Below the pieces are notes generated by a model, which saw nothing but the letters and a program-made list of their open reading frames with translations, did no database searches and was not told where the DNA came from. Of a stretch of 64,000 bases of DNA, positions 31,922-64,000 are shown one piece after another. A program made the translations under genes and the position numbers. The first letter of the stretch is position 1, and each line of letters starts with the position of its first letter. This stretch comes from a virus (lineage: Duplodnaviria > Heunggongvirae > Uroviricota > Caudoviricetes): the IMG/VR virus record IMGVR_UViG_2675903278_000002; one strand, written 5' to 3'.

Positions 31922-32125
31922 TTAAATAGAATTTTGAAGTTTTCCGATTAATGCGCTTAAACGTAAGTATTCACGTTTGCGCTTGCAATCTCGCTTGCTG
32001 TTGAGCAAATCAGAAAACGTAAAATTTAATTGGTCGCGTTGCGCGATCAAATCATCGATTAATTCCAGTTTATAAGCGCGATACTTTGCGCGATATTCCG
32101 CGCGGATCTTGTCATAGCTGACCAT
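31922..32125 (-). CDS. hypothetical small basic protein
   Basis: ~67 aa from internal Met (MVSYDKIRAEY...) of track ORF 31922..32170, with AAGGAG RBS. Confidence 0.5.
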   Translation of the reverse strand: MVSYDKIRAEYRAKYRAYKLELIDDLIAQRDQLNFTFSDLLNSKRDCKRKREYLRLSALIGKLQNSI

Positions 32126-32138
32126 TTTTAAAGCTCCT

Positions 32139-32162
32139 TTAAAGCGCCCACTATGGGCGCTT
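32139..32162 (-). terminator. intercistronic hairpin (attenuator-like)
   Basis: AAGCGCCCACTATGGGCGCTT between the 216-aa gene stop and the next RBS. Confidence 0.5.
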
Positions 32163-32173
32163 GATTCCATTAA

Positions 32174-32824: not shown

Positions 32825-33069
32825 GATAATTTTTCCTTATGTAAATTTAAAATTTATTGTCGTTAGCGTCTTCGCTTTCGACGAGTTCAATTATCGATAT
32901 GCGAAAAAAGATTGCAAGTGTTTTTTTTAAATTTTTTGCAGGGATGAAAGTCCTAGAAATAAAAGCGAGATCGTCGAAGGTGTTCCCTAAATAAATAATT
33001 GATTGCGGCTTTAGACCTTATATATATTTAGGTTATTTGATTTGTAGATATAAAGAAGTGATGTGAAAA

Positions 33070-33098
33070 ATAATAACCGGACTTAGCCGGTTATTAAC
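33070..33098. terminator. bidirectional hairpin terminator
   Basis: AATAACCGG-ACTTAG-CCGGTTATT between the two minus-strand cassettes. Confidence 0.6.
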
Positions 33099-33107
33099 CT
33101 TATAGAT

Positions 33108-33416
33108 TTATTGAACAGACTCTACAGCCTTACGATTGGTGTCAAATAGCGCATCAACGAACTGTGCCGATGACTCGCTAGATTCGCAATCCAACATTGC
33201 CCGTTCTTCATTTGCCACTTTCTTACACAGTTCCACATTCTCACCTATCGCTTTTCCTGCTTTTACGGCTGCCGAAAATTGATACATGCAAACTGATACA
33301 TTCTGAGACGTTGAGCACACGTCATTCATCAGCGACTGAATGACAGGCTTATAGTCCATTGCATTTGCCGCAACTGAGCAAAGTAAAAATAATGGTGGTA
33401 ACAATATCGATTTCAT
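33108..33416 (-). CDS. putative secreted/periplasmic small protein
   Basis: 102 aa; N-terminal signal peptide MKSILLPPLFLLCSVAANA; several Cys. Confidence 0.6.
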   Translation of the reverse strand: MKSILLPPLFLLCSVAANAMDYKPVIQSLMNDVCSTSQNVSVCMYQFSAAVKAGKAIGENVELCKKVANEERAMLDCESSESSAQFVDALFDTNRKAVESVQ

Positions 33417-33419
33417 AAC

Positions 33420-33944
33420 TCAAAAAGGCAAAATTCGTTCAACCCAATCGAACAAAACAACTATTTTTCTACCGTTCTCGACACGTAGTGTAACCTGACA
33501 AGCATCTGCGCCTGCTGACACCCCCTCAATTTCACGGCCATCCGCCATGTACACCCTTATAGATTTGTTTGCTTTGTAGGCTTGGTTGCAAATTGCAAAA
33601 AAATCGCGGCGTGATGGCCGATTATCGACATAATCAGGGTGAACTGTTAGTCGACCTTTGAAATCGTGAGCGATACTGTCAACCACACCTGATTCAATTG
33701 TACTAATGCGTTCAAGTGGGAGCCTTATACGATTTTCTTTGTCAAAAGGGGCTGGGCAAAGGTCAACTTTGTTACGAGATGGCATGAGGCCATAAACGTA
33801 CATGCAAAACGCCTGGCCATCTTCGAGAGTGACCCTTACAGGAATTTGTTCTCTGCGCCAGAACATCAGTAGTTTTTCAACGTTAGTGTAATCTCGCGGC
33901 CAGAGTTCAGCTTGGATACCGTAGGTAATATCTTTGGTTGTCAT
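33420..33944 (-). CDS. hypothetical protein
   Basis: ~174 aa from internal Met (MTTKDITYG...) of track ORF 33420..34022; ATG 1 nt after the upstream lipoprotein gene stop. Confidence 0.55.
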   Translation of the reverse strand: MTTKDITYGIQAELWPRDYTNVEKLLMFWRREQIPVRVTLEDGQAFCMYVYGLMPSRNKVDLCPAPFDKENRIRLPLERISTIESGVVDSIAHDFKGRLTVHPDYVDNRPSRRDFFAICNQAYKANKSIRVYMADGREIEGVSAGADACQVTLRVENGRKIVVLFDWVERILPF

Positions 33945-33948
33945 ATCA

Positions 33949-34371
33949 TCACAGAGTTGTTGGCAGAATGTCGATGTCACCAGAATTGCTGGTAAACACC
34001 CTGAACGCTTTTGTGTCTCCATTCTTCAGAGTCGTTTCTCGCTCTTGACGAGCGGGGTTTAGAGCACATAAACCTGCACCTTCAAGAGATGCACCCACAA
34101 TTAATTCTCCGGCATTTAAATGGAAAGTCGCTTTTTCGCCTGTAGCCAGTTTTGCGACAGTTTCGCCGTTGATGAAAATGGAAGCATCACATCCAGCTCC
34201 TACAAAACCTGTGTCTCTCATTACCACCAACGTAGCTGGCGCTGCGCTTTGATACTTGAACACTTTGGCCTGCGGTGCTGGTTTGGCGTCATGGATTGAT
34301 ATTGGGTGTGATTGGCACGCGGCAAGCATCAACACTGGTAACGTTAGTAGAGGGAGAAGCGAGTATTTCAT
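33949..34371 (-). CDS. putative lipoprotein (candidate superinfection-exclusion protein)
   Basis: ~140 aa from internal Met (MKYSLLPLLTLPVLMLAACQ...); lipobox LAAC; function inferred by analogy. Confidence 0.6.
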   Translation of the reverse strand: MKYSLLPLLTLPVLMLAACQSHPISIHDAKPAPQAKVFKYQSAAPATLVVMRDTGFVGAGCDASIFINGETVAKLATGEKATFHLNAGELIVGASLEGAGLCALNPARQERETTLKNGDTKAFRVFTSNSGDIDILPTTL

Positions 34372-34439
34372 GATAGTTTTAGAACAGAAAGTGAACAGTA
34401 TGGGAGACTTCATCTTTGTCTCCCTAATTGATAGCGTGA

Positions 34440-34718
34440 TTATTTTAATCTGCTTAATAGCGTTTCGAGATCTTCCTTTGTCATATTAGAGTTCTCATAG
34501 ATACGCATGATTTTCTCACGAGTCTTAGCGGAAGCCCCGACAGAAGATATAACCTTGTCAAAGTCGGCCATTGTCAATTGTTCCAGAATGGTATTTATGA
34601 CTTCAGCCTTAGACATTTTGATATTTTTTTCTTTTAGTTTCACTTGAAACTTTCCAAGTTTGTCATTGGCCTTATCAGACAATGCTACCTGACAGTAAGT
34701 TGTTTTCTTTTCACTCAT
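34440..34718 (-). CDS. hypothetical protein
   Basis: 92 aa ORF immediately downstream of the helicase gene on the minus strand. Confidence 0.55.
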   Translation of the reverse strand: MSEKKTTYCQVALSDKANDKLGKFQVKLKEKNIKMSKAEVINTILEQLTMADFDKVISSVGASAKTREKIMRIYENSNMTKEDLETLLSRLK

Positions 34719-34720
34719 AA

Positions 34721-36280
34721 CTAATCTCGTTTCAGAACTCCAAAATCGAATGCTCCATCAATAGGCAATACACCTTCTGCAAAGCCAGGTGTGGTGTCGA
34801 TGATGTGTTTTCGCTCATAAGAGTGAGACAACAGGTATTTGTTGCTAATGTCAATGAAATCAGTGATAAAACACACGTTTGCCTGATTTTTTTTGGCTCG
34901 TAAGCCACGACCGACACGCTGCCTCATTTCAACTTCTGCTTTTCCACCACCAGCCAGAATGACCGCACCAACGCTTGGCACATCAACACCGACATCCAGA
35001 ATAGTCGAGCCTATTAAAACATCTATTTCGCCAGACGCTAAACTGTTCAGCTTTGCTTGCCTTGTCGCCTGGTTCGATTCCCCATAGATGAAGTCAACTT
35101 TAAGACCTGACTCCTTCATCATCTCCATCAGGATTTGCCCGTGGCGTTTAAGACGAACCAGAGTCATGCAATTGAGAGAATGTTGCTTATAGAGCAATGC
35201 TTCGCGCACAATGGCCTCGTTACGTCCCAAATTATACACGATCCCCAACTGATAAGCCTTTTGGTAGGCTGTGCTCATACCTACTCTAAAATTAAGGTGT
35301 TTGTTGGCAAGTTCCGCCTTGATTCTGACCTCGTCTGGCTTGTAAGCAACTTTATGATAAAGGAAGTACGGTTTTGCCAGAATGCCTCGATCAATCAGGT
35401 ACTTTTCTGTGACTTTAATTTCAATTCGACCGGCCACAGCCATCAGACGCATGTTGGCTTCTGTAGAATCCTTCATGAACGGCGTGGCCGTAAGCGCCAG
35501 ACGATAGTCTGCGTTCACACATAATCTGGCAATGTCATAGAAATTAGAGCCTGAAGACTCATGCGCTTCTTCCAGAATAAGCAGAGACACACTTGAAAGG
35601 AAGCGTTTCACCAACTCCCGACGTTTGAGGTGGTAGCTTTTCTTATCTGGTGTTGCATCGCGTGGTGGTTCTTCGAGGAAACTTGCAAGAGTTTGAACTG
35701 TAGCGACGTTGATATGTCGTGATACCTGGAACTCACCCGAGCCAATGACTCCAACCTTTTGGTCTTTTAACCACGGTTCGCCATTTTCGGCGCGGTAGTC
35801 GATGGATCTCTGGAAGTTTTCGGCCATTTGAAACATCAGAACAGAGCGGGTTGTTAAAAATAATGTCATTCGACCGATACGTGCAGCTGCTTTGCAGGCA
35901 ACGTTAGATTTCCCGCCACCAGTAGCGATCTGCGCAATCATCATTCCCTCTCGAACCAGTGTTTCCACAGTCTGATCCTGATACGCATAATCAGGATTGT
36001 ATGGGAATGGGTTAACCGCCGGATTTGGTTTACCAAGCGCCGGGGCTTTGTCTTTGCGGATATGAACACATTTGATGCCCGCCTTGTTCAAGTTCGCCGC
36101 TACAGGCTTGGCAAAGCCAGCAGGGAACGAGTTTTTACTCCAGTTGAACATCGTGCTTGTGCCCTTCCAGTCGCCAGTCTCGACTTCGTAGCTCAACATT
36201 TGCTGCACCAGTTGCTTTACCTTGTCATCTGCGCCAGAAATAAGCGCATTTACTGCGTTAGATACAATCCGAACAGTCAT
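34721..36280 (-). CDS. SF2 DNA/RNA helicase (DEAD/DEAH-like)
   Basis: 519 aa; Walker A IATGGGKS, motif II LILEEAHE, C-terminal domain with QRVGRGLR arginine finger. Confidence 0.88.
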   Translation of the reverse strand: MTVRIVSNAVNALISGADDKVKQLVQQMLSYEVETGDWKGTSTMFNWSKNSFPAGFAKPVAANLNKAGIKCVHIRKDKAPALGKPNPAVNPFPYNPDYAYQDQTVETLVREGMMIAQIATGGGKSNVACKAAARIGRMTLFLTTRSVLMFQMAENFQRSIDYRAENGEPWLKDQKVGVIGSGEFQVSRHINVATVQTLASFLEEPPRDATPDKKSYHLKRRELVKRFLSSVSLLILEEAHESSGSNFYDIARLCVNADYRLALTATPFMKDSTEANMRLMAVAGRIEIKVTEKYLIDRGILAKPYFLYHKVAYKPDEVRIKAELANKHLNFRVGMSTAYQKAYQLGIVYNLGRNEAIVREALLYKQHSLNCMTLVRLKRHGQILMEMMKESGLKVDFIYGESNQATRQAKLNSLASGEIDVLIGSTILDVGVDVPSVGAVILAGGGKAEVEMRQRVGRGLRAKKNQANVCFITDFIDISNKYLLSHSYERKHIIDTTPGFAEGVLPIDGAFDFGVLKRD

Positions 36281-57263: not shown

Positions 57264-57280
57264 ACAAGGATTTTTTGAAC

Positions 57281-60200
57281 ATGGAACAGTTCAAGAAGAA
57301 AAAGCTACCGCTGTTTATTGCCGGTGCGGGTGGTAAAAAAAGCAGCAAAAGCTCCAGCCGTACACCGGTTGAAGCCGACGATACCGTAAATTCTCGTGCA
57401 ATGGCCGCTATCCTCGATCTTCTTGGGGAAGGGGTAATTGGCGGCTTAGTAAATGGCGCAAGATCTATTTTTATCGACGATCTGCCGATTGTAAATGAAG
57501 ACGGTTCCTCCAACTTCAGCGGAATCACATGGGATTTTCGCGACGGTTCACAAGACCAGACTCCAATGTCTGGCTTTGATTTCGTTGAAACGCCTAAATC
57601 CGTCAATATCCAGTTAAAAAAAACACATTATGTAACGGTTTCAATCGATAACGATGAAGCTGATCGGGTTCGTGTCATCATGAAGTTTCCTTCTTTGCGA
57701 AGCATAGATAAAAAAACTGGTGACACGAACGGTACGACTGTTGAGTACAAGTTCCAGATAGCAAATGGCGACTCAACATTTGTAGATGTGGTCGCTGAAG
57801 GTGAAAAAAGCGTTGGCATTAAGCTAACAGCAAAGAAGACCGGCGTTTATTACCGTAGCTATGAGCTGAAGCTGCCTAAGCCTGGACGAGCATACAAGGT
57901 TCGTGTGGTCCGTATTACCGATGATAACAGTAGCCAGTATCTCTATAACGATACATGGGTGGATTCAATCGGGGAAATTGTCGATACACCGATGAACTAT
58001 CCAAACTCTGTTTTGGTTGGATTGAAGGTAAACTCTGAGCAATTCGGCAGCACCATGCCATCTCGCTCTTATCTGGTGCGTGGCCTAAAAATTCGAGTAC
58101 CTTCAAACTATAACGAGTCCAGTAACACTTACGCTGGGGTATGGGATGGCACTTTTAAGCTGTTGTCTTCTTCGAACCCCGCGTGGATTCTCTTTGATTT
58201 GCTGACCAATGCTCGATATGGCCTTGGTCAGTATGTGTCGGAATCTATGATTGACCTTGGCCAGTTGTACCAGATTGGTCGATATTGTGACGAAGAGGTC
58301 GATGATGGCTTTGGTGGCAAAGAGAAACGCTTTGCAATCAATACGCAGATCACCAGTCGACAGGACGCATACCGGCTAATTCAGGATATTGCCGGAGCAT
58401 TCCGCGGCATGGTGTTTTGGGCTGGTGGGATGGTTAACATCATGCAGGATAGCCCATCAGATCCGGTAATGATGTTTACCAACTCTAACGTCAAAGATGG
58501 ATTGTTTACCTATAAAGGTTCTGCGCGTAAAGATCGCCCATCCGTTGCGCTCGTAACCTACAACAACAAGGAGGACGGTTATAAGCAAAACATCGAGTAC
58601 GTCGAAGATCAGGACGCAATGCGCCGTTATGGTGAGCGTAAAACAGAAGTCGTAGCATTTGGCTGTACAAGCCGAGGGCAGGCTCACCGAGTTGGTTTGT
58701 GGCTTTTATATACCGCCAGAATGGAGTCGGATGTAATTACATTTACTGCCGGCTTAGACGCGTCATTTCTGATGCCTGGTGAAACCGTTCTGATTCAGAA
58801 CAAATATCGCGCAGGCAAACGTAACTCAGGTCGAATTGTGGCGTTTACCAAAAACAGCGTCACACTCGATGCGCCTGTGTCGTTAGCCAAAGGCGGCTGC
58901 TTTATTCGAATACTGAATCAGGAAGGCAAAATCGTTGAACGCGATGTTCTTGAAACTGGCGAAAATATAACAAAAGTTACGTTTTCAAAAGCCCTGTCTT
59001 CGGCTGAAACGCCTGTTTTGAACGGCGTCTGGACTATTACAGAACCAGACCTCGAACCTATGCGCGTTCGCATCGTTAACATCGCGCAGGGGGAAACGCC
59101 GGGTAGCTTTGACATCACCGCTGTTGAGAACAATCCGTCTAAATATGAGGCAATCGACAATGGTGCAACGCTGATCCCGCAGAATACGACGGTATTGGAC
59201 CCAACTTACTCCAAGCCATCTAATTTGCAAATCACTGAAGGGACTTATCTCTCAAGCCCGGGCAACCTGTCAGTAAAACTGACTGCAACATGGGAAGGGA
59301 AATCTCCAGAGTATTGGATCAGTTGGCGACGTTCTGATGAAAACAATGTATCGAACTGGCAATCGGCGCGTGTAACCGAAGAGCAATACGAAATCGTTAA
59401 TGTCGCGGAGAATGGACGCTACGACTTCCAGCTGTATGCGGTTTCATTCAACGGTAAAAAAACAGAGATTATCAGTGCCGTTTATCAGGTGTTGGGCACA
59501 ATGACACCGCCGGATTCCCCAACGTCATTAACGGCCGTTGGAGACTATCGTAATGTGATACTGAATTGGGTTAATCCAGATTCGGTAGACCTTGATCACA
59601 TTAATGTTTACGCATCCCAGACCAACAATCTGGATACGGCGAAACTGATCGCAGAGTCTGCAAGCACCACCTTTACACATGCTGGTCTTGGGGATAGCGA
59701 AACGTGGTATTACTGGGTTCGAGCATCGAACAAGCGAGGTATGTTAAGTCCTCCGAACTCAAACTTGGGTACAGAGGCGACAACTCGCGATGTACTGTCG
59801 TTCCTGACTGGCAAAATTACATCTTCCGAGCTTGGTCAGGCTCTGCTTGAGGACATCAACAGCAAAGCCTCTCAAGAAGCAGTTGACGAGTTAAATGAGC
59901 ATATCAACCAGAGCGTCGAATCTTTGGAGGGGGCGGTAAACGACGTTAAGGAAGATATAGCTGAATTAGATCAGCAGTTCAGCGATAACCTCGCGGATTT
60001 TGAAATAAAATTCAACGAGCGTAGCGATGCTTTGGAGAACGCACAAACCGAGCTTAAAGGTGAGGTTTCGGCAACGATCGACAAGGTCAATGAAGCGTTT
60101 GAAAAAATTGATGCTACTGATGCTGCAATTGTTGAAATCGAAAACACCGTATCTGAACACGATAAAGCTCTCGCTAATACAGTCGAGGCAATAAAGGCTG

Positions 60201-62008
60201 CAAGAGATGAAGCGGCGGCTCTTATTGCTAAGGAAAGCGAGGCTCGTGTTGAAGGCGATGCTGCAAACGCTAAACAACTGGAAGTGTTGCAGTCAACGGT
60301 AGAGGAAAGCTCCGCTGCCGTTGAAGAAATGAAAAAGACGGTTGCAGAGGTCGATCGTGCCAGTGCAGAACTGACTACGAACATTGAGGCGTTAGCCAAA
60401 ACAAATATTGACCTGGCTCTTCGTCAAGATGAAGACCAGCACAAGCAGATGGTCAATAACGCGAAGATCGCAACAACACAGAAAACCTTTGCTGATGATA
60501 TGTCTGCAATGGCCACGAAGGTTGAGGAAATTCGCGTAGAAATTGGCGAAGACATTAAGGCCAGTATTCTGGAAGAGTCCACCGCTCGTGCCGATGGCGA
60601 TGAAGCGTTGGCAAAGCGTGTCACTCAGCTGCAATCTAAGTTTGAAGGAGATATCAGCGCGGCGATTAGTACAGAGCAGGAGGCTCGTACATCTGCCGAT
60701 GAAGCTCTGACGACACAGATCACTCAGCTTGAGTCGAAAGTAAGCAACGATATCGTCGCAGCTATTAAGGAAGAGCAAGAAGCCCGAGCAACGGAAGATT
60801 CGGCTCTGGCAAGCCAGATCACCCAACTTCAGGCAAAGGTTGATGATGATATTTCTGCTGCAATACGTAGTGAGCAGGAGGCCCGAGCAAGCGGGGACTC
60901 TGCGTTAGCCAAACAAATAAACCAGCTTCAGTCAAAGGTTGACGGTGATATATCCGCTGCCATCACTCAGGAGCAGGAGGCCAGAGCAAGTGCTGACCAG
61001 GCGCTCTCACGAGAAATTAACAGCCTGCGAGCACAAACCGGAACTGATATTGCCGCAGCGGTTGCTGTAGAGACAAAAGCAAGGACTGATGCCGATAGTG
61101 CATTGTCTACCCAGATTACGTCTCTTACAGCAAAAGCTAATGATCTCGAGGCGTCTCTTGCCAGAGAAACAACGGCTCGTGCAGATGGTGATACCGCTTT
61201 AACAAAAGAGGTTTCAAGTTTAAAAGCACAGACAGCGAAAGATATTAGTGCGGCCGTTGCAGTTGAAACGCAGGCTCGAACTGATGCTGACTCGGCGTTG
61301 TCGTCTCAGATCACCAAGCTGACCTCTCAATACAAAGAGGATATTAAAGCGGCTGTAGCAACCGAAACGAAAACGCGTACAGAGCAAGATGCTGCATTGG
61401 CGACTCAAATCACAAACTTAGAGTCTCAAACGGCAGCCAACATTTCCGCGGCGGTAACAACTGAAACGACAGCGAGAACGCAGGCAGATAATGCTCTGAG
61501 TGGGCGAATCGATACTCTGAAAGCAGAGGTGGATGGAAATACCGCGACAATTCAACAGCAGGCAACAGCTATTGCTGATACCAACAAAAAAGTATCAACC
61601 GCGTGGACGTTGAAAATGGAGACTTCAACGAGCGGAGGGCAGAAGTATGTTGCCGGTATTGCGCTTGGTATTGACACCACTGGGCTATCTCAGTTTTTGG
61701 TTCAGGCGGACAGGTTTGGTTTGGTCAACTCTGTTAACGGGAAGATCACAACGCCATTTGTTATCGAAAACAGTATCGCCTATATGAATGGAGCGTATAT
61801 CAAGGATGGCACAATCACCAATGCAAAAGTAGGCGATCTGCAATCTACCAATTTTGTTAGCGGTAGATCTGGATGGCGGTTCGGCAAAAATGGAACGCTT
61901 GAGATCAACGGTAATAGCGGCGGCAATGGGCGATTGGTTATAAATGGTCAGCGGATTGACGTTTATGACGATAACAACGTCCTACGAGTAAGAATTGGCC
62001 GTCTGTGA
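57281..62008 (+). CDS. central tail fibre / host specificity protein (lambda gpJ-like) with internal tandem-repeat array
   Basis: ~1575 aa; YPNSVLVGLKVNSEQFG, AFGCTSRGQAHRVGLWLLYT, GQKYVAGIALGI, GRLVINGQRIDVYDD follow lambda J order; ~0.55 kb-equivalent run of ~33-aa helical repeats inserted before the C-terminal domain. Confidence 0.9.
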   Translation: MEQFKKKKLPLFIAGAGGKKSSKSSSRTPVEADDTVNSRAMAAILDLLGEGVIGGLVNGARSIFIDDLPIVNEDGSSNFSGITWDFRDGSQDQTPMSGFDFVETPKSVNIQLKKTHYVTVSIDNDEADRVRVIMKFPSLRSIDKKTGDTNGTTVEYKFQIANGDSTFVDVVAEGEKSVGIKLTAKKTGVYYRSYELKLPKPGRAYKVRVVRITDDNSSQYLYNDTWVDSIGEIVDTPMNYPNSVLVGLKVNSEQFGSTMPSRSYLVRGLKIRVPSNYNESSNTYAGVWDGTFKLLSSSNPAWILFDLLTNARYGLGQYVSESMIDLGQLYQIGRYCDEEVDDGFGGKEKRFAINTQITSRQDAYRLIQDIAGAFRGMVFWAGGMVNIMQDSPSDPVMMFTNSNVKDGLFTYKGSARKDRPSVALVTYNNKEDGYKQNIEYVEDQDAMRRYGERKTEVVAFGCTSRGQAHRVGLWLLYTARMESDVITFTAGLDASFLMPGETVLIQNKYRAGKRNSGRIVAFTKNSVTLDAPVSLAKGGCFIRILNQEGKIVERDVLETGENITKVTFSKALSSAETPVLNGVWTITEPDLEPMRVRIVNIAQGETPGSFDITAVENNPSKYEAIDNGATLIPQNTTVLDPTYSKPSNLQITEGTYLSSPGNLSVKLTATWEGKSPEYWISWRRSDENNVSNWQSARVTEEQYEIVNVAENGRYDFQLYAVSFNGKKTEIISAVYQVLGTMTPPDSPTSLTAVGDYRNVILNWVNPDSVDLDHINVYASQTNNLDTAKLIAESASTTFTHAGLGDSETWYYWVRASNKRGMLSPPNSNLGTEATTRDVLSFLTGKITSSELGQALLEDINSKASQEAVDELNEHINQSVESLEGAVNDVKEDIAELDQQFSDNLADFEIKFNERSDALENAQTELKGEVSATIDKVNEAFEKIDATDAAIVEIENTVSEHDKALANTVEAIKAARDEAAALIAKESEARVEGDAANAKQLEVLQSTVEESSAAVEEMKKTVAEVDRASAELTTNIEALAKTNIDLALRQDEDQHKQMVNNAKIATTQKTFADDMSAMATKVEEIRVEIGEDIKASILEESTARADGDEALAKRVTQLQSKFEGDISAAISTEQEARTSADEALTTQITQLESKVSNDIVAAIKEEQEARATEDSALASQITQLQAKVDDDISAAIRSEQEARASGDSALAKQINQLQSKVDGDISAAITQEQEARASADQALSREINSLRAQTGTDIAAAVAVETKARTDADSALSTQITSLTAKANDLEASLARETTARADGDTALTKEVSSLKAQTAKDISAAVAVETQARTDADSALSSQITKLTSQYKEDIKAAVATETKTRTEQDAALATQITNLESQTAANISAAVTTETTARTQADNALSGRIDTLKAEVDGNTATIQQQATAIADTNKKVSTAWTLKMETSTSGGQKYVAGIALGIDTTGLSQFLVQADRFGLVNSVNGKITTPFVIENSIAYMNGAYIKDGTITNAKVGDLQSTNFVSGRSGWRFGKNGTLEINGNSGGNGRLVINGQRIDVYDDNNVLRVRIGRL
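60500..61600 (+). repeat. in-frame tandem repeat array (~99-nt period) inside the J-like gene
   Basis: At least ten consecutive units of pattern DIxAAIxxEQEARxxADxALxxQITQLxSKV; boundaries approximate. Confidence 0.75.
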
Positions 62009-62101: not shown

Positions 62102-64000
62102 ATGTGGTACAGGGAAGGTACTATCACATTTACACAGGGTAGCAATACTCTGGTTGGGGCAGGGACAGCCTGGAACGTAACAGCTAATGGTGTGTTGCCG
62201 GGGATGATCGTCATTGGCCCCGACAATAAGCTGTATGAGATCAAGCGCGTAATAAGCGATACGAATATTGTTCTCTCAGAACCTTATACCGGCGAAACTC
62301 AGTCTGAGGTTCCGTGCCGAATCATTACGACCTATGAAGGCGACTTAACACAGTTTAGCGCGCGCTTTACAGCACTAATGTCGCGTATGTCGGCTGATTC
62401 CAAGTCTATGCGCAGTTGGTTGACTGCTCTGGATGAGGTGACAATCGAGCGTGAAGACGGTACAGAAGTAACCGTTAAGCCGCTAATGCAGATCGTCAAC
62501 GAGCACAACGAAAACGTTGAGTGGTATAAAAATAACACTGACGCGATTGATGCTGCTGGCGACAAAGCTCGTGAGGCGGCGGCCAGTGCTGCCGCAGCAG
62601 CAGAAAGCGCCAATACCGCTGGAGAAAAAGCCTCTCAAGCGTCTCAAAGTGCATCCGCTGCGGCATCCTCACAAAGTGCCGCAAGTGCGAGTGCAACTGC
62701 TGCGAAAAAATCTGAAACGAATGCCGCAGCGTCACAACAATCAGCAGCCACTTCTGCATCCACCGCGACCACGAAAGCGTCAGAAGCTGCCACCTCAGCC
62801 CGGGATGCGGCGGCCTCAAAAGAGGCAGCGAAATCATCAGAAACGAACGCATCCTTGAGCGCCAGTAGCGCAGCTTCCTCGGCAACGGCGGCAGGAAATT
62901 CCGCGAAGGCGGCAAAAACGTCCGAGACGAACGCCAGGTCTTCTGAGACGGCAGCGGGACAGAGCGCCTCAGCTGCGGCAGGCTCAAAAACAGCGGCTGC
63001 GTCGTCTGCCAGTGCCGCGTCAACAAGTGCCGGGCAGGCCTCAGCCAGTGCCACCGCCGCCGGAAAATCGGCAGAAAGTGCCGCATCGTCTGCTTCAACA
63101 GCCACAACGAAGGCTGGCGAAGCCACTGAACAGGCCAGCGCAGCAGCGAGGTCTGCTTCCGCAGCGAAGACATCCGAAACGAACGCGAAAGCGTCGGAAA
63201 CCAGCGCAGAATCATCAAAAACGGCTGCCGCATCGTCCGCCAGTTCGGCGGCGTCATCGGCATCATCTGCGTCTGCTTCAAAAGATGAGGCGACCAGACA
63301 GGCGTCAGCAGCGAAGGGCAGTGCCACGACGGCATCCACGAAAGCAACAGAGGCGGCAGGCAGTGCGACGGCAGCATCTCAGAGCAAAACTACTGCTGAA
63401 TCCGCTGCGACCCGTGCGGAAGCTGCTGCTGATCGTGCTGAAGAGATTGCCGGTGCAGTTGCGATGGAAGACGCAAGCCTTACAACTAAAGGTGTTGTGA
63501 AACTTAGCAGTGCTGTTGATAGCACCAGTGAATCGCTGGCCGCAACGCCAAAAGCAGTTAAAGCAGCCAATGACAATGCGAATAGCAGGGTGCCATCTAA
63601 CCGAAAAGTTAACGGAAAAGCATTGACTGCGGATATAACATTAACGCCGAAAGATATTGGTACTTTAAATTCAGTAACGATGTCTTTCTCTGGCGGGGCT
63701 GGGTGGTTCAAACTGGCTACGGTTACCATGCCACAAGCGAGTTCCATCGTTTACATCGCATTGATTGGTGGCGCTGGTTACAACGTCGGTTCCCCACATC
63801 AGGCAGGCATTTCAGAACTGGTTCTACGAGCAGGCAATGGAAACCCCAAAGGAATTACCGGGGCTTTGTGGAAGCGTACAGCCGTCGGATTAACGAATTT
63901 CGCCTGGATCAACACATCCGGCGATACATATGATATTTACGTTGAGATTGGCAATTATGCGACGAGTGTAAATATCCATTGGGATTGTACTGCAAATGCG
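62102..64000 (+). CDS. side tail fibre protein, 3' end outside window
   Basis: ATG after AGGAG; frame open to window end so absent from track; Ala/Ser-rich repeats (SETNA...SASAA) then conserved fibre block KGVVKLSSAVDSTSESLAATPKAVKAAND; track ORFs here are other frames. Confidence 0.85.
   Translation, partial: MWYREGTITFTQGSNTLVGAGTAWNVTANGVLPGMIVIGPDNKLYEIKRVISDTNIVLSEPYTGETQSEVPCRIITTYEGDLTQFSARFTALMSRMSADSKSMRSWLTALDEVTIEREDGTEVTVKPLMQIVNEHNENVEWYKNNTDAIDAAGDKAREAAASAAAAAESANTAGEKASQASQSASAAASSQSAASASATAAKKSETNAAASQQSAATSASTATTKASEAATSARDAAASKEAAKSSETNASLSASSAASSATAAGNSAKAAKTSETNARSSETAAGQSASAAAGSKTAAASSASAASTSAGQASASATAAGKSAESAASSASTATTKAGEATEQASAAARSASAAKTSETNAKASETSAESSKTAAASSASSAASSASSASASKDEATRQASAAKGSATTASTKATEAAGSATAASQSKTTAESAATRAEAAADRAEEIAGAVAMEDASLTTKGVVKLSSAVDSTSESLAATPKAVKAANDNANSRVPSNRKVNGKALTADITLTPKDIGTLNSVTMSFSGGAGWFKLATVTMPQASSIVYIALIGGAGYNVGSPHQAGISELVLRAGNGNPKGITGALWKRTAVGLTNFAWINTSGDTYDIYVEIGNYATSVNIHWDCTANA

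Follow-up and report, generated by a model that had tools for sequence, protein, structure and literature searches.

Do the small genes at positions 33108-34718, on the minus strand of IMG/VR virus record IMGVR_UViG_2675903278_000002, form a cassette that acts at the cell envelope, and what is the role of the cytoplasmic protein encoded among them? We analysed a stretch of 64,000 nucleotides (nt) from this tailed-phage record, referred to below as the window, which by its sequence is a phage-plasmid of the SSU5/pHCM2/pMT1 type. A first-pass annotation had described the locus as a signal-peptide protein, an anonymous cytoplasmic protein and a lipoprotein that might together exclude superinfecting phages. 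We find instead that its main interest lies in the cytoplasmic protein, an orphan relative of the Salmonella flagellin repressor FljA, rather than in the cassette as first framed. Our preferred reading, to which we assign a probability of roughly 0.55, is that the phage-plasmid carries an orphan FljA-family repressor between two slots of independent envelope cargo, and that the lipoprotein in one of these slots masks or modifies a surface structure.

The cytoplasmic protein can be assigned, on sequence grounds, to the FljA family as a full-length member. It matches the Pfam profile PF03614 (repressor of phase-1 flagellin) across profile positions 1-170 of 170, with a score of 281.7 bits compared to a cut-off of 24 (E 2.5e-84), and is 36% identical over 171 amino acids (aa; E 1e-37) to P0135, a protein named by NCBI 'phase 1 flagellin gene repressor FljA [Salmonella enterica]'. 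The Salmonella protein, of 179 aa, is collinear with the 174-aa FljA-like protein over its full length, and the two have in common the motifs AE(I/V)WPRDY near the N-terminus, PSRRD(F/Y)F.IC in the centre and FDWV.RI near the C-terminus. The length of 174 aa assumes a start at ATG 33944, which we consider most likely because the homologues begin there, rather than the 200-aa open reading frame (ORF) 33420-34022. The family is very small; a HMMER search of 1.84 billion cluster representatives yielded 26 hits, few of which are full length.

The structural model of the FljA-like protein consists of two tandem Hfq/Sm-like domains and has the N-terminal helix and five-stranded bent beta-sheet that characterize the Sm/Hfq-like fold. 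Whereas Hfq and Sm proteins are homohexamers of single domains, the FljA-like protein has two Sm-like domains per chain, at 13-22% identity. A sequence search of the PDB with the FljA-like protein gave nothing significant, and no solved FljA structure was found. Two Sm-like domains in tandem are consistent with the action reported for FljA, on the translation of fliC mRNA (work cited in PMC2652032). By analogy, the protein is predicted to be an Hfq-like RNA-binding translational repressor.

To place the gene in context, we fetched 88 related loci and mapped all neighbours, which gave 73 distinct architectures. The order helicase, orf92, slot 1, FljA-like gene, slot 2, p216 is constant in the 88 loci, and the FljA-like gene, present in all 88, is the segment's only constant gene. 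The corresponding features of the window are these:

34721..36280, minus strand: DEAD/DEAH-box (UvsW-like) helicase (Pfam ResIII, DEAD, Helicase_C), first gene of the co-directional block
34440..34718, minus strand: orf92, a cytoplasmic protein of 92 aa (phrog_1466, E 5e-46)
34439..34468, minus strand: weak sigma-70-like promoter match within the 3' end of orf92 (TCGAAA-18-AATAAT, 9/12 matches)
33949..34413, minus strand: lipoprotein precursor, a 154-aa ORF (phrog_890, E 6e-52), in variable slot 1
33420..33944, minus strand: FljA-family protein of 174 aa, modelled with two tandem Sm/Hfq-like domains (PF03614), the conserved core of the segment
33108..33416, minus strand: secreted protein of 102 aa (phrog_9536, E 6e-55), in variable slot 2
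33062..33096, minus strand: intrinsic terminator (10-bp stem, 6-nt loop, TTTTT tail)

Tight spacing joins these genes. There are 2 nt from the helicase stop to the orf92 ATG, 26 nt from orf92 to the lipoprotein gene, with an AGGGAG ribosome-binding site, 4 nt from the lipoprotein stop to the FljA-like ATG and 3 nt from the FljA-like stop to the ATG of the secreted-protein gene. The earlier description of co-directional minus-strand genes is thus borne out, with spacings of 2-26 nt and a single strong terminator at the end, and so is the tight coupling of the cytoplasmic protein (4 nt and 3 nt to its neighbours), although this partner is not anonymous, as PF03614 places it in the FljA family. 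All three genes of the described block are present; orf92, inside the same coordinates, had been left out. Orf92, the lipoprotein, the FljA-like protein and the secreted protein all match PHROG families (E 5e-46 to 2e-100), their non-synonymous divergence is far below a saturated synonymous divergence, and we take the four to be real genes. The block would form the 3' part of a transcription unit that runs from the helicase through orf92, the lipoprotein, FljA-like and secreted-protein genes to the terminator. The match at 34439..34468 is a possible internal promoter for the lipoprotein, FljA-like and secreted-protein genes; a single site of this kind has little weight, because the scan gave 16 sites where 8.9 were expected.

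Conservation of the FljA-like gene extends well beyond these loci. By tblastn, the FljA-like protein is encoded on 835 PLSDB plasmids, 826 of which cover at least 80% of its length; the principal genera are Klebsiella (345), Escherichia (229), Enterobacter (92), Yersinia (62) and Salmonella (60). The ratio of non-synonymous to synonymous divergence (dN/dS) is 0.08-0.12, the Klebsiella and Y. pestis copies included. In contrast to Salmonella fljA, the gene has no linked flagellin or invertase gene, sits in a phage-plasmid backbone between two cargo slots, and is conserved also in elements whose hosts lack flagella. One chromosomal copy, P0074, was considered as a flagellin-linked fljA and rejected: it lies in an integrated SSU5-like remnant with a partial helicase and p216 (locus L006, E. 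coli chromosome CP125919.1, 385158-397682), and with 52% identity and scrambled-looking stretches it is probably decaying.

On each side of this fixed gene there would be a recombination slot, its cargo differing from one phage-plasmid to another. Slot 1 holds a phrog_890 lipoprotein gene on the same strand in the window, SSU5 and pMT1, and a 28%-identical phrog_890 homologue on the opposite strand in Klebsiella; in Cyrano, which E. coli LF82 carries as a phage-plasmid, slot 1 is taken by CYRAN_115, an unrelated lipoprotein of 260 aa encoded on the opposite strand. Elsewhere it contains an unrelated signal-peptide protein of 197 aa, whose stop overlaps the FljA start, or one of 118 aa, or assorted cytoplasmic proteins, or nothing. 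Slot 2 contains a secreted protein of ~100 aa or is empty. The slots therefore hold at least four unrelated families of exported proteins or lipoproteins. In two loci the cargo is of another kind, a SMEK-domain protein (L094, 4140-5153; Pfam SMEK_N, E 2e-30), with a further match to the N-terminal part of an Argonaute-associated effector in PADLOC, and a 377-aa HNH-endonuclease protein (L065, 1339-2472). As SMEK- and HNH-domain proteins are typical of conflict systems, the slots appear to collect defence-like genes too; in the window itself, neither the lipoprotein nor the FljA-like protein, the secreted protein or p216 matched a PADLOC defence profile.

If the lipoprotein and the secreted protein worked as a two-component envelope module that blocks a phage receptor in the manner of T5 Llp/Cor, as first suggested, we would expect them to travel together. 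Both carry convincing export signals, judged by a rule-based scan and by conservation, and co-occurrence is the commonest state among architectures that have either gene: 25 of the 73 have both, compared to 15 with the lipoprotein only and 5 with the secreted protein only (28 have neither). Homologues of the lipoprotein elsewhere also lie beside receptor-binding genes or cI. However, these co-occurrence counts are phylogenetically non-independent, and since each gene occurs without the other, we regard the two as independent cargo and not as an obligate pair. SSU5 and pMT1 have the lipoprotein gene and lack that of the secreted protein, while Cyrano, with the same J and tail fibre, has neither gene. 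Moreover, a conserved and unrelated backbone gene separates the pair, and the lipoprotein is not homologous to Llp/Cor. A two-component module is thus improbable, and that part of the first-pass annotation is not supported. In the preferred reading, slot 1 would here carry a phrog_890 lipoprotein predicted for the outer membrane and slot 2 a small disulfide-bonded periplasmic protein, each acting in the envelope independently of the other and of the regulator.

The FljA-like gene differs from its flanks in how fast its alleles diverge. Between the window and locus L041, synonymous divergence (dS) is 0.12 for the helicase and 0.25 for p216, but 1.3 for the FljA-like gene, and in L041 and L073 the FljA-like alleles are 67-79% identical where the flanking helicase and p216 are 98-100% identical. 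Because the FljA-like gene is so much more diverged than its flanks, it appears that the island, its constant gene included, is swapped by recombination. The sequence pattern is one usual for specificity or immunity determinants.

Transcription of the corresponding block has been recorded in Cyrano lysogens of E. coli LF82. The orf92 homologue CYRAN_117 is a listed moron, transcribed 12-fold over the prophage background in lysogens (PMC9928086, Table 1), and is the top-transcribed gene of the block in that state. In the RNA sequencing (RNA-seq) data of the same study, the FljA-like gene CYRAN_114 has a log2 value, in fragments per kilobase per million mapped reads (fpkm), of ~4.2 in overnight lysogeny broth (LB), 7-7.4 in Dulbecco's modified Eagle's medium (DMEM) and ~8.1 in macrophages, that is, ~16-fold more in macrophages than in LB (PMC9928086). 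The slot-1 lipoprotein CYRAN_115 rises from ~4.8 to 9.4 on the same scale, and the terminase and capsid genes of Cyrano stay at ~3-4 in most conditions, with the capsid gene up at 6 h in macrophages. These data indicate that lysogens express the block and that its expression changes with the environment.

What might an orphan FljA bind? By homology, the fixed element of the block would bind an mRNA leader and block its translation; both the RNA binding and the target are inferred. The 5' leader of fliC is the only FljA target with a precedent in an E. coli host, and an orphan repressor that brings no replacement flagellin would just remove the flagella. We tentatively hold fliC to be the leading candidate in E. 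coli, at somewhat under even odds, with a different or additional target about equally likely.

Precedents for a FljA-family repressor on a mobile element are the fljB(z66)-fljA pair of the S. Typhi linear plasmid pBSSB1, whose FljA silences the fliC gene of E. coli, a heterologous host (PMC2652032), and the fljAB-pinR islands known from S. Senftenberg and E. coli (bioRxiv 10.1101/2025.10.27.684867). Indeed, pBSSB2, a kanamycin-marked derivative of pBSSB1 with fljA(z66), turned motile E. coli non-motile (PMC2652032). In these cases, however, the repressor always comes with a replacement flagellin, so that motility persists under a new antigen, whereas the repressor described here is an orphan.

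Several observations weigh against flagellin as the only target, and hence against this part of the preferred reading. In the chromosomal fljA loci of Franconibacter and Atlantibacter (L013-L015) a flagellin gene lies directly upstream of the repressor gene, whereas tblastn with FliC detected no flagellin gene either in the window or in the phage-plasmid loci. Nor did blastn-short with the promoter, leader and first codons of E. coli K-12 fliC find a fliC-leader-like sequence in the window, chance matches being no longer than 15 nt. Purifying selection also maintains the FljA-like gene in plasmids of Klebsiella (345 records) and Y. pestis (62 records). Klebsiella and Y. pestis make no flagella, and this retention argues that flagellin is not the sole target. 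Both LF82, the carrier of Cyrano, and S. Typhi CT18, the carrier of pHCM2, have flagella, and LF82 contains abundant flagellin mRNA at the same time as it expresses the FljA-like homologue. The last point is a weak one, because FljA acts mainly on translation.

The same observations give their strength to a rival explanation, in which the FljA-like protein is unconnected with flagellin here and serves as a housekeeping or specificity regulator of the phage-plasmid, represses translation of an mRNA of the element itself (from its lysis-lysogeny, replication or cargo genes, for instance) or of another host mRNA, and has the exported neighbours as unrelated hitch-hiking cargo. It would account for a gene that is universal in the backbone (88 loci and 835 plasmids, including those of Klebsiella and Y. 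pestis, at a dN/dS of ~0.1) where flagellin genes are absent from the phage-plasmid loci and yet stand next to chromosomal fljA, for an allele that diverges much more than its flanks, as a specificity determinant would (dS of 1.3 versus 0.12-0.25), and for the high flagellin mRNA in LF82 despite expression of the homologue. Set against this, the three canonical FljA signature motifs are retained, which suggests a conserved ligand, no candidate cis target emerged from the fliC-leader search of the window or from Rfam, and the mRNA abundance is uninformative for a protein that acts mainly on translation. We consider this explanation a substantial competitor, with a likelihood of about one in three. 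A broader idea, which we hold to be less likely than not, is that FljA proteins are a general class of mobile-element RNA regulators, such that the fast-diverging SSU5-type orphan would control some other host or phage-plasmid mRNA at the post-transcriptional level and anchor a hot spot of envelope and defence cargo, with Salmonella phase variation as a domesticated case.

We return to the preferred reading and its second component, the lipoprotein. Its gene may start at ATG 34413 (154 aa, with the AGGGAG ribosome-binding site) or at ATG 34371 (140 aa). The lipobox that had been reported is clear: the sequence is L-A-A-C, in agreement with the bacterial-lipoprotein pattern [LVI][ASTVI][GAS]C, with the Cys codon at 34317-34315 and Gln, not Asp, as the +2 residue. 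This Cys is unchanged in 13 homologues and is found also in the 28%-identical Klebsiella homologue (VAGC). The mature part, of ~121 aa, is beta-rich and has two more Cys. Structure prediction, which had been proposed as a check, was productive for the FljA-like protein, with its tandem Sm domains, but poor for the lipoprotein; the AlphaFold2 model is all-beta and of low confidence (predicted local distance difference test, pLDDT, 51), with matches to generic beta-sandwiches only, a further point that lessens support for the preferred reading. Bor and TraT were considered for the lipoprotein, and the Pfam scan returned just a sub-threshold DUF2846 match. A PDB sequence search with the lipoprotein profile gave nothing significant.

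Homologues of the lipoprotein are encoded in 60 phage records by tblastn, and phrog_890 is a widespread, uncharacterised moron family. SSU5_122 is 76% identical to the window lipoprotein, and pMT1 also has a member. The more distant morons, such as mEp390 gp17, HK639 gp16 and P2_0033 of Vibrio phage P2, are 24-42% identical over ~88% of it and share its lipobox and a conserved Cys pair, and the genes are always accessory insertions. Their positions are as follows:

L096 3426-3872: phrog_890 homologue of mEp390 (gp17), inserted between the tail genes K and I, immediately upstream of the receptor-binding gene J
L100 2462-2872: phrog_890 homologue of Fostie, inserted between the tail genes K and I, immediately upstream of J
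L101 2462-2884: phrog_890 homologue of phiAH14a, inserted between the tail genes K and I, immediately upstream of J
L099 2459-2872: phrog_890 homologue of HK639 (gp16), after the tape-measure gene
L098 3459-3872: phrog_890 homologue of Vibrio phage P2 (P2_0033), directly downstream of cI

The homologue of vB_Pae_CF183a likewise lies between K and I, just upstream of J, and in Vibrio anguillarum temperate phages the homologue is directly downstream of cI on the same strand. Membership in phrog_890 gives no function, because no member has been characterised. Nevertheless, these are typical positions of exclusion genes in unrelated temperate phages, and this lends circumstantial support to a role in exclusion or conversion. 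Most likely, the lipoprotein would mask or modify a surface structure and thereby exclude other phages or bring about another lysogenic conversion. The outer-membrane location and the exclusion phenotype are both inferred; by analogy, superinfection exclusion is plausible for the lipoprotein alone, and an envelope-acting accessory role expressed in lysogeny is plausible as well.

Exclusion of the T5 Llp type, in which the lipoprotein masks the receptor of its own phage, is a special case with particular expectations. There are points of likeness: T5 Llp/Cor is a small phage lipoprotein too, and llp adjoins oad as the phrog_890 homologues of lambdoid phages and Pseudomonas siphophages adjoin the tail-tip receptor-binding gene. 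However, when we used the T5 Llp sequence as query, verified as 100% identical to T5 llp, BLASTP gave E 0.19 with an alignment in the signal peptide only, and T5 Llp belongs to phrog_1119 ('Cor superinfection exclusion protein') while the window lipoprotein belongs to phrog_890 only. The mature part of the latter is twice as long as that of Llp/Cor, and its gene is ~23 kb from the J gene (57275-62008). If the lipoprotein masked the element's own receptor, it should co-vary with the receptor-binding genes. It does not: Cyrano has a J and tail fibre 98.8% identical to those of the window and lacks this lipoprotein, whereas SSU5 has the lipoprotein and a diverged J. Self-receptor masking is weakened accordingly, which also tells against the surface-masking part of the preferred reading.

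A phage-encoded lipoprotein predicted for the outer membrane might alternatively be the o-spanin of the lysis machinery, with the neighbouring genes as lysis accessories. In that case an adjacent or embedding i-spanin would be expected, but there is none, and no neighbouring protein (helicase, orf92, FljA-like) has a transmembrane segment. The mature part, at ~121 aa and beta-rich, is not the short proline-rich peptide of an o-spanin, the gene is variably present and lies in the early/plasmid region, and its homologues are expressed from lysogeny-type positions. Furthermore, the SSU5 spanins are catalogued separately as two-component, with an o-spanin grouped with that of phage Chi (PMC6139136). 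The missing i-spanin, the size and the gene location effectively refute a spanin identity.

The third protein of the original description, the secreted protein of slot 2, has the signal peptide attributed to it (MKSILLPPLFLLCSVAANA, residues 1-19, positions 33416-33360, followed by MDY), with Lys in the n-region, a hydrophobic core whose 9-residue Kyte-Doolittle mean peaks at 2.63, and the cleavage motif A-N-A, which leaves a mature part of 83 aa. The N-terminus has drifted in sequence but still resembles a signal peptide both in homologues of 65-88% identity and in a Klebsiella counterpart of 22% identity, and the four mature Cys are conserved even in the Klebsiella counterpart. Some gene callers begin the protein at Met20 and drop the signal peptide, as in the phrog_9536 profile. 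Homologues were found in SSU5-like phage-plasmids only, and a PDB sequence search with the profile gave nothing significant and no informative relatives.

The genes themselves are already annotated in SSU5 and pHCM2 records, as 'putative repressor of phase 1 flagellin', 'flagellar synthesis: repressor of fliC' and 'putative lipoprotein'. Our literature search found no link of fljA to SSU5, pHCM2, pMT1 or phage-plasmids, and no discussion of its neighbours. Nor did we find an earlier report of the tandem Sm fold, of the two cargo slots that favour exported proteins, or of an orphan FljA that is universal in this plasmid family, hosts without flagella included. With respect to annotation, the gain is that a 'cytoplasmic protein' receives a defined family and that the lipoprotein and the secreted protein are no longer a pair.

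The consequences differ with the target. If the FljA-like protein silences flagellin, a family of phage-plasmids that is very common in E. coli, Salmonella and Enterobacter, and that often carries resistance genes, could stop both motility and the production of a major innate-immune ligand, and the loss of flagella would protect from flagellum-dependent phages too. Should its target be another one, as the copies retained in Klebsiella and Y. pestis suggest, the protein would represent an unstudied class of plasmid-borne RNA regulator. The flanking slots offer a compact natural library of phage-encoded envelope proteins that could be screened for exclusion or surface remodelling.

The surroundings of the block agree with the assignment of the element. 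The 1.9 kb around it are 99.5% identical to Escherichia phage CMS-2020a and 78% identical, across 48% of the query, to Salmonella phage SSU5, and the gene order agrees with that of SSU5, Y. pestis pMT1, Klebsiella IncFIB plasmids and Cyrano. The block occupies the minus strand of the plasmid/early region and diverges from two ParB-like genes, and the structural genes, from the terminase to J and the tail fibre, are on the plus strand at ~39.7-64 kb. Among the neighbours, the helicase is a conserved backbone gene with 90-100% identity across related loci, and orf92 is found in every related locus that covers its stretch. The N-terminal half of orf92 (strand, helix, helix) has the look of a ribbon-helix-helix DNA-binding domain, judged by eye alone; Pfam, the PDB sequence search and PADLOC gave nothing significant for orf92, the PADLOC hits being at chance level. 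Across the whole window no Rfam family reached its gathering score. NCBIfam gave no hits.

Downstream of the terminator, ~240 bp of the minus strand (32825-33061) are non-coding up to p216, a highly conserved backbone protein (phrog_1513), and contain a promoter-like TTGCAA-16-GATAAT at 32917-32890. Relatives that lack the secreted-protein gene have a non-coding stretch of similar length there, ~300-330 bp.

Three minor observations concern annotation and mosaicism. An 82-aa ORF at 31922-32170 on the minus strand matches phrog_6145, which shares with SSU5_119 the label 'MIT family metal ion transporter'; the name is apparently a misannotation passed on between records, because a soluble coiled-coil-like protein of 67-82 aa cannot transport, and the sole Pfam signal of the ORF is a weak match to DUF6899. 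Enterobacterial SSU5-type sequence also appears in public records under Gram-positive taxa (L012, the metagenome-assembled genome 'Bacillota bacterium' JAEWTL010000044.1, and P0079, 'Gemella morbillorum'), most likely as a binning or contamination artefact. Finally, the distal tail-fibre segment of the window (~62626-64000, plus strand) is 96% identical to phi458 and 87-89% identical to PhiR29 and PhiR30, which are unrelated 45-kb E. coli phages, and the tail-fibre region overall is nearer to Cyrano (98.8%) than to CMS-2020a (98.1%), a pattern that points to exchange of side-tail-fibre modules in a mosaic genome.

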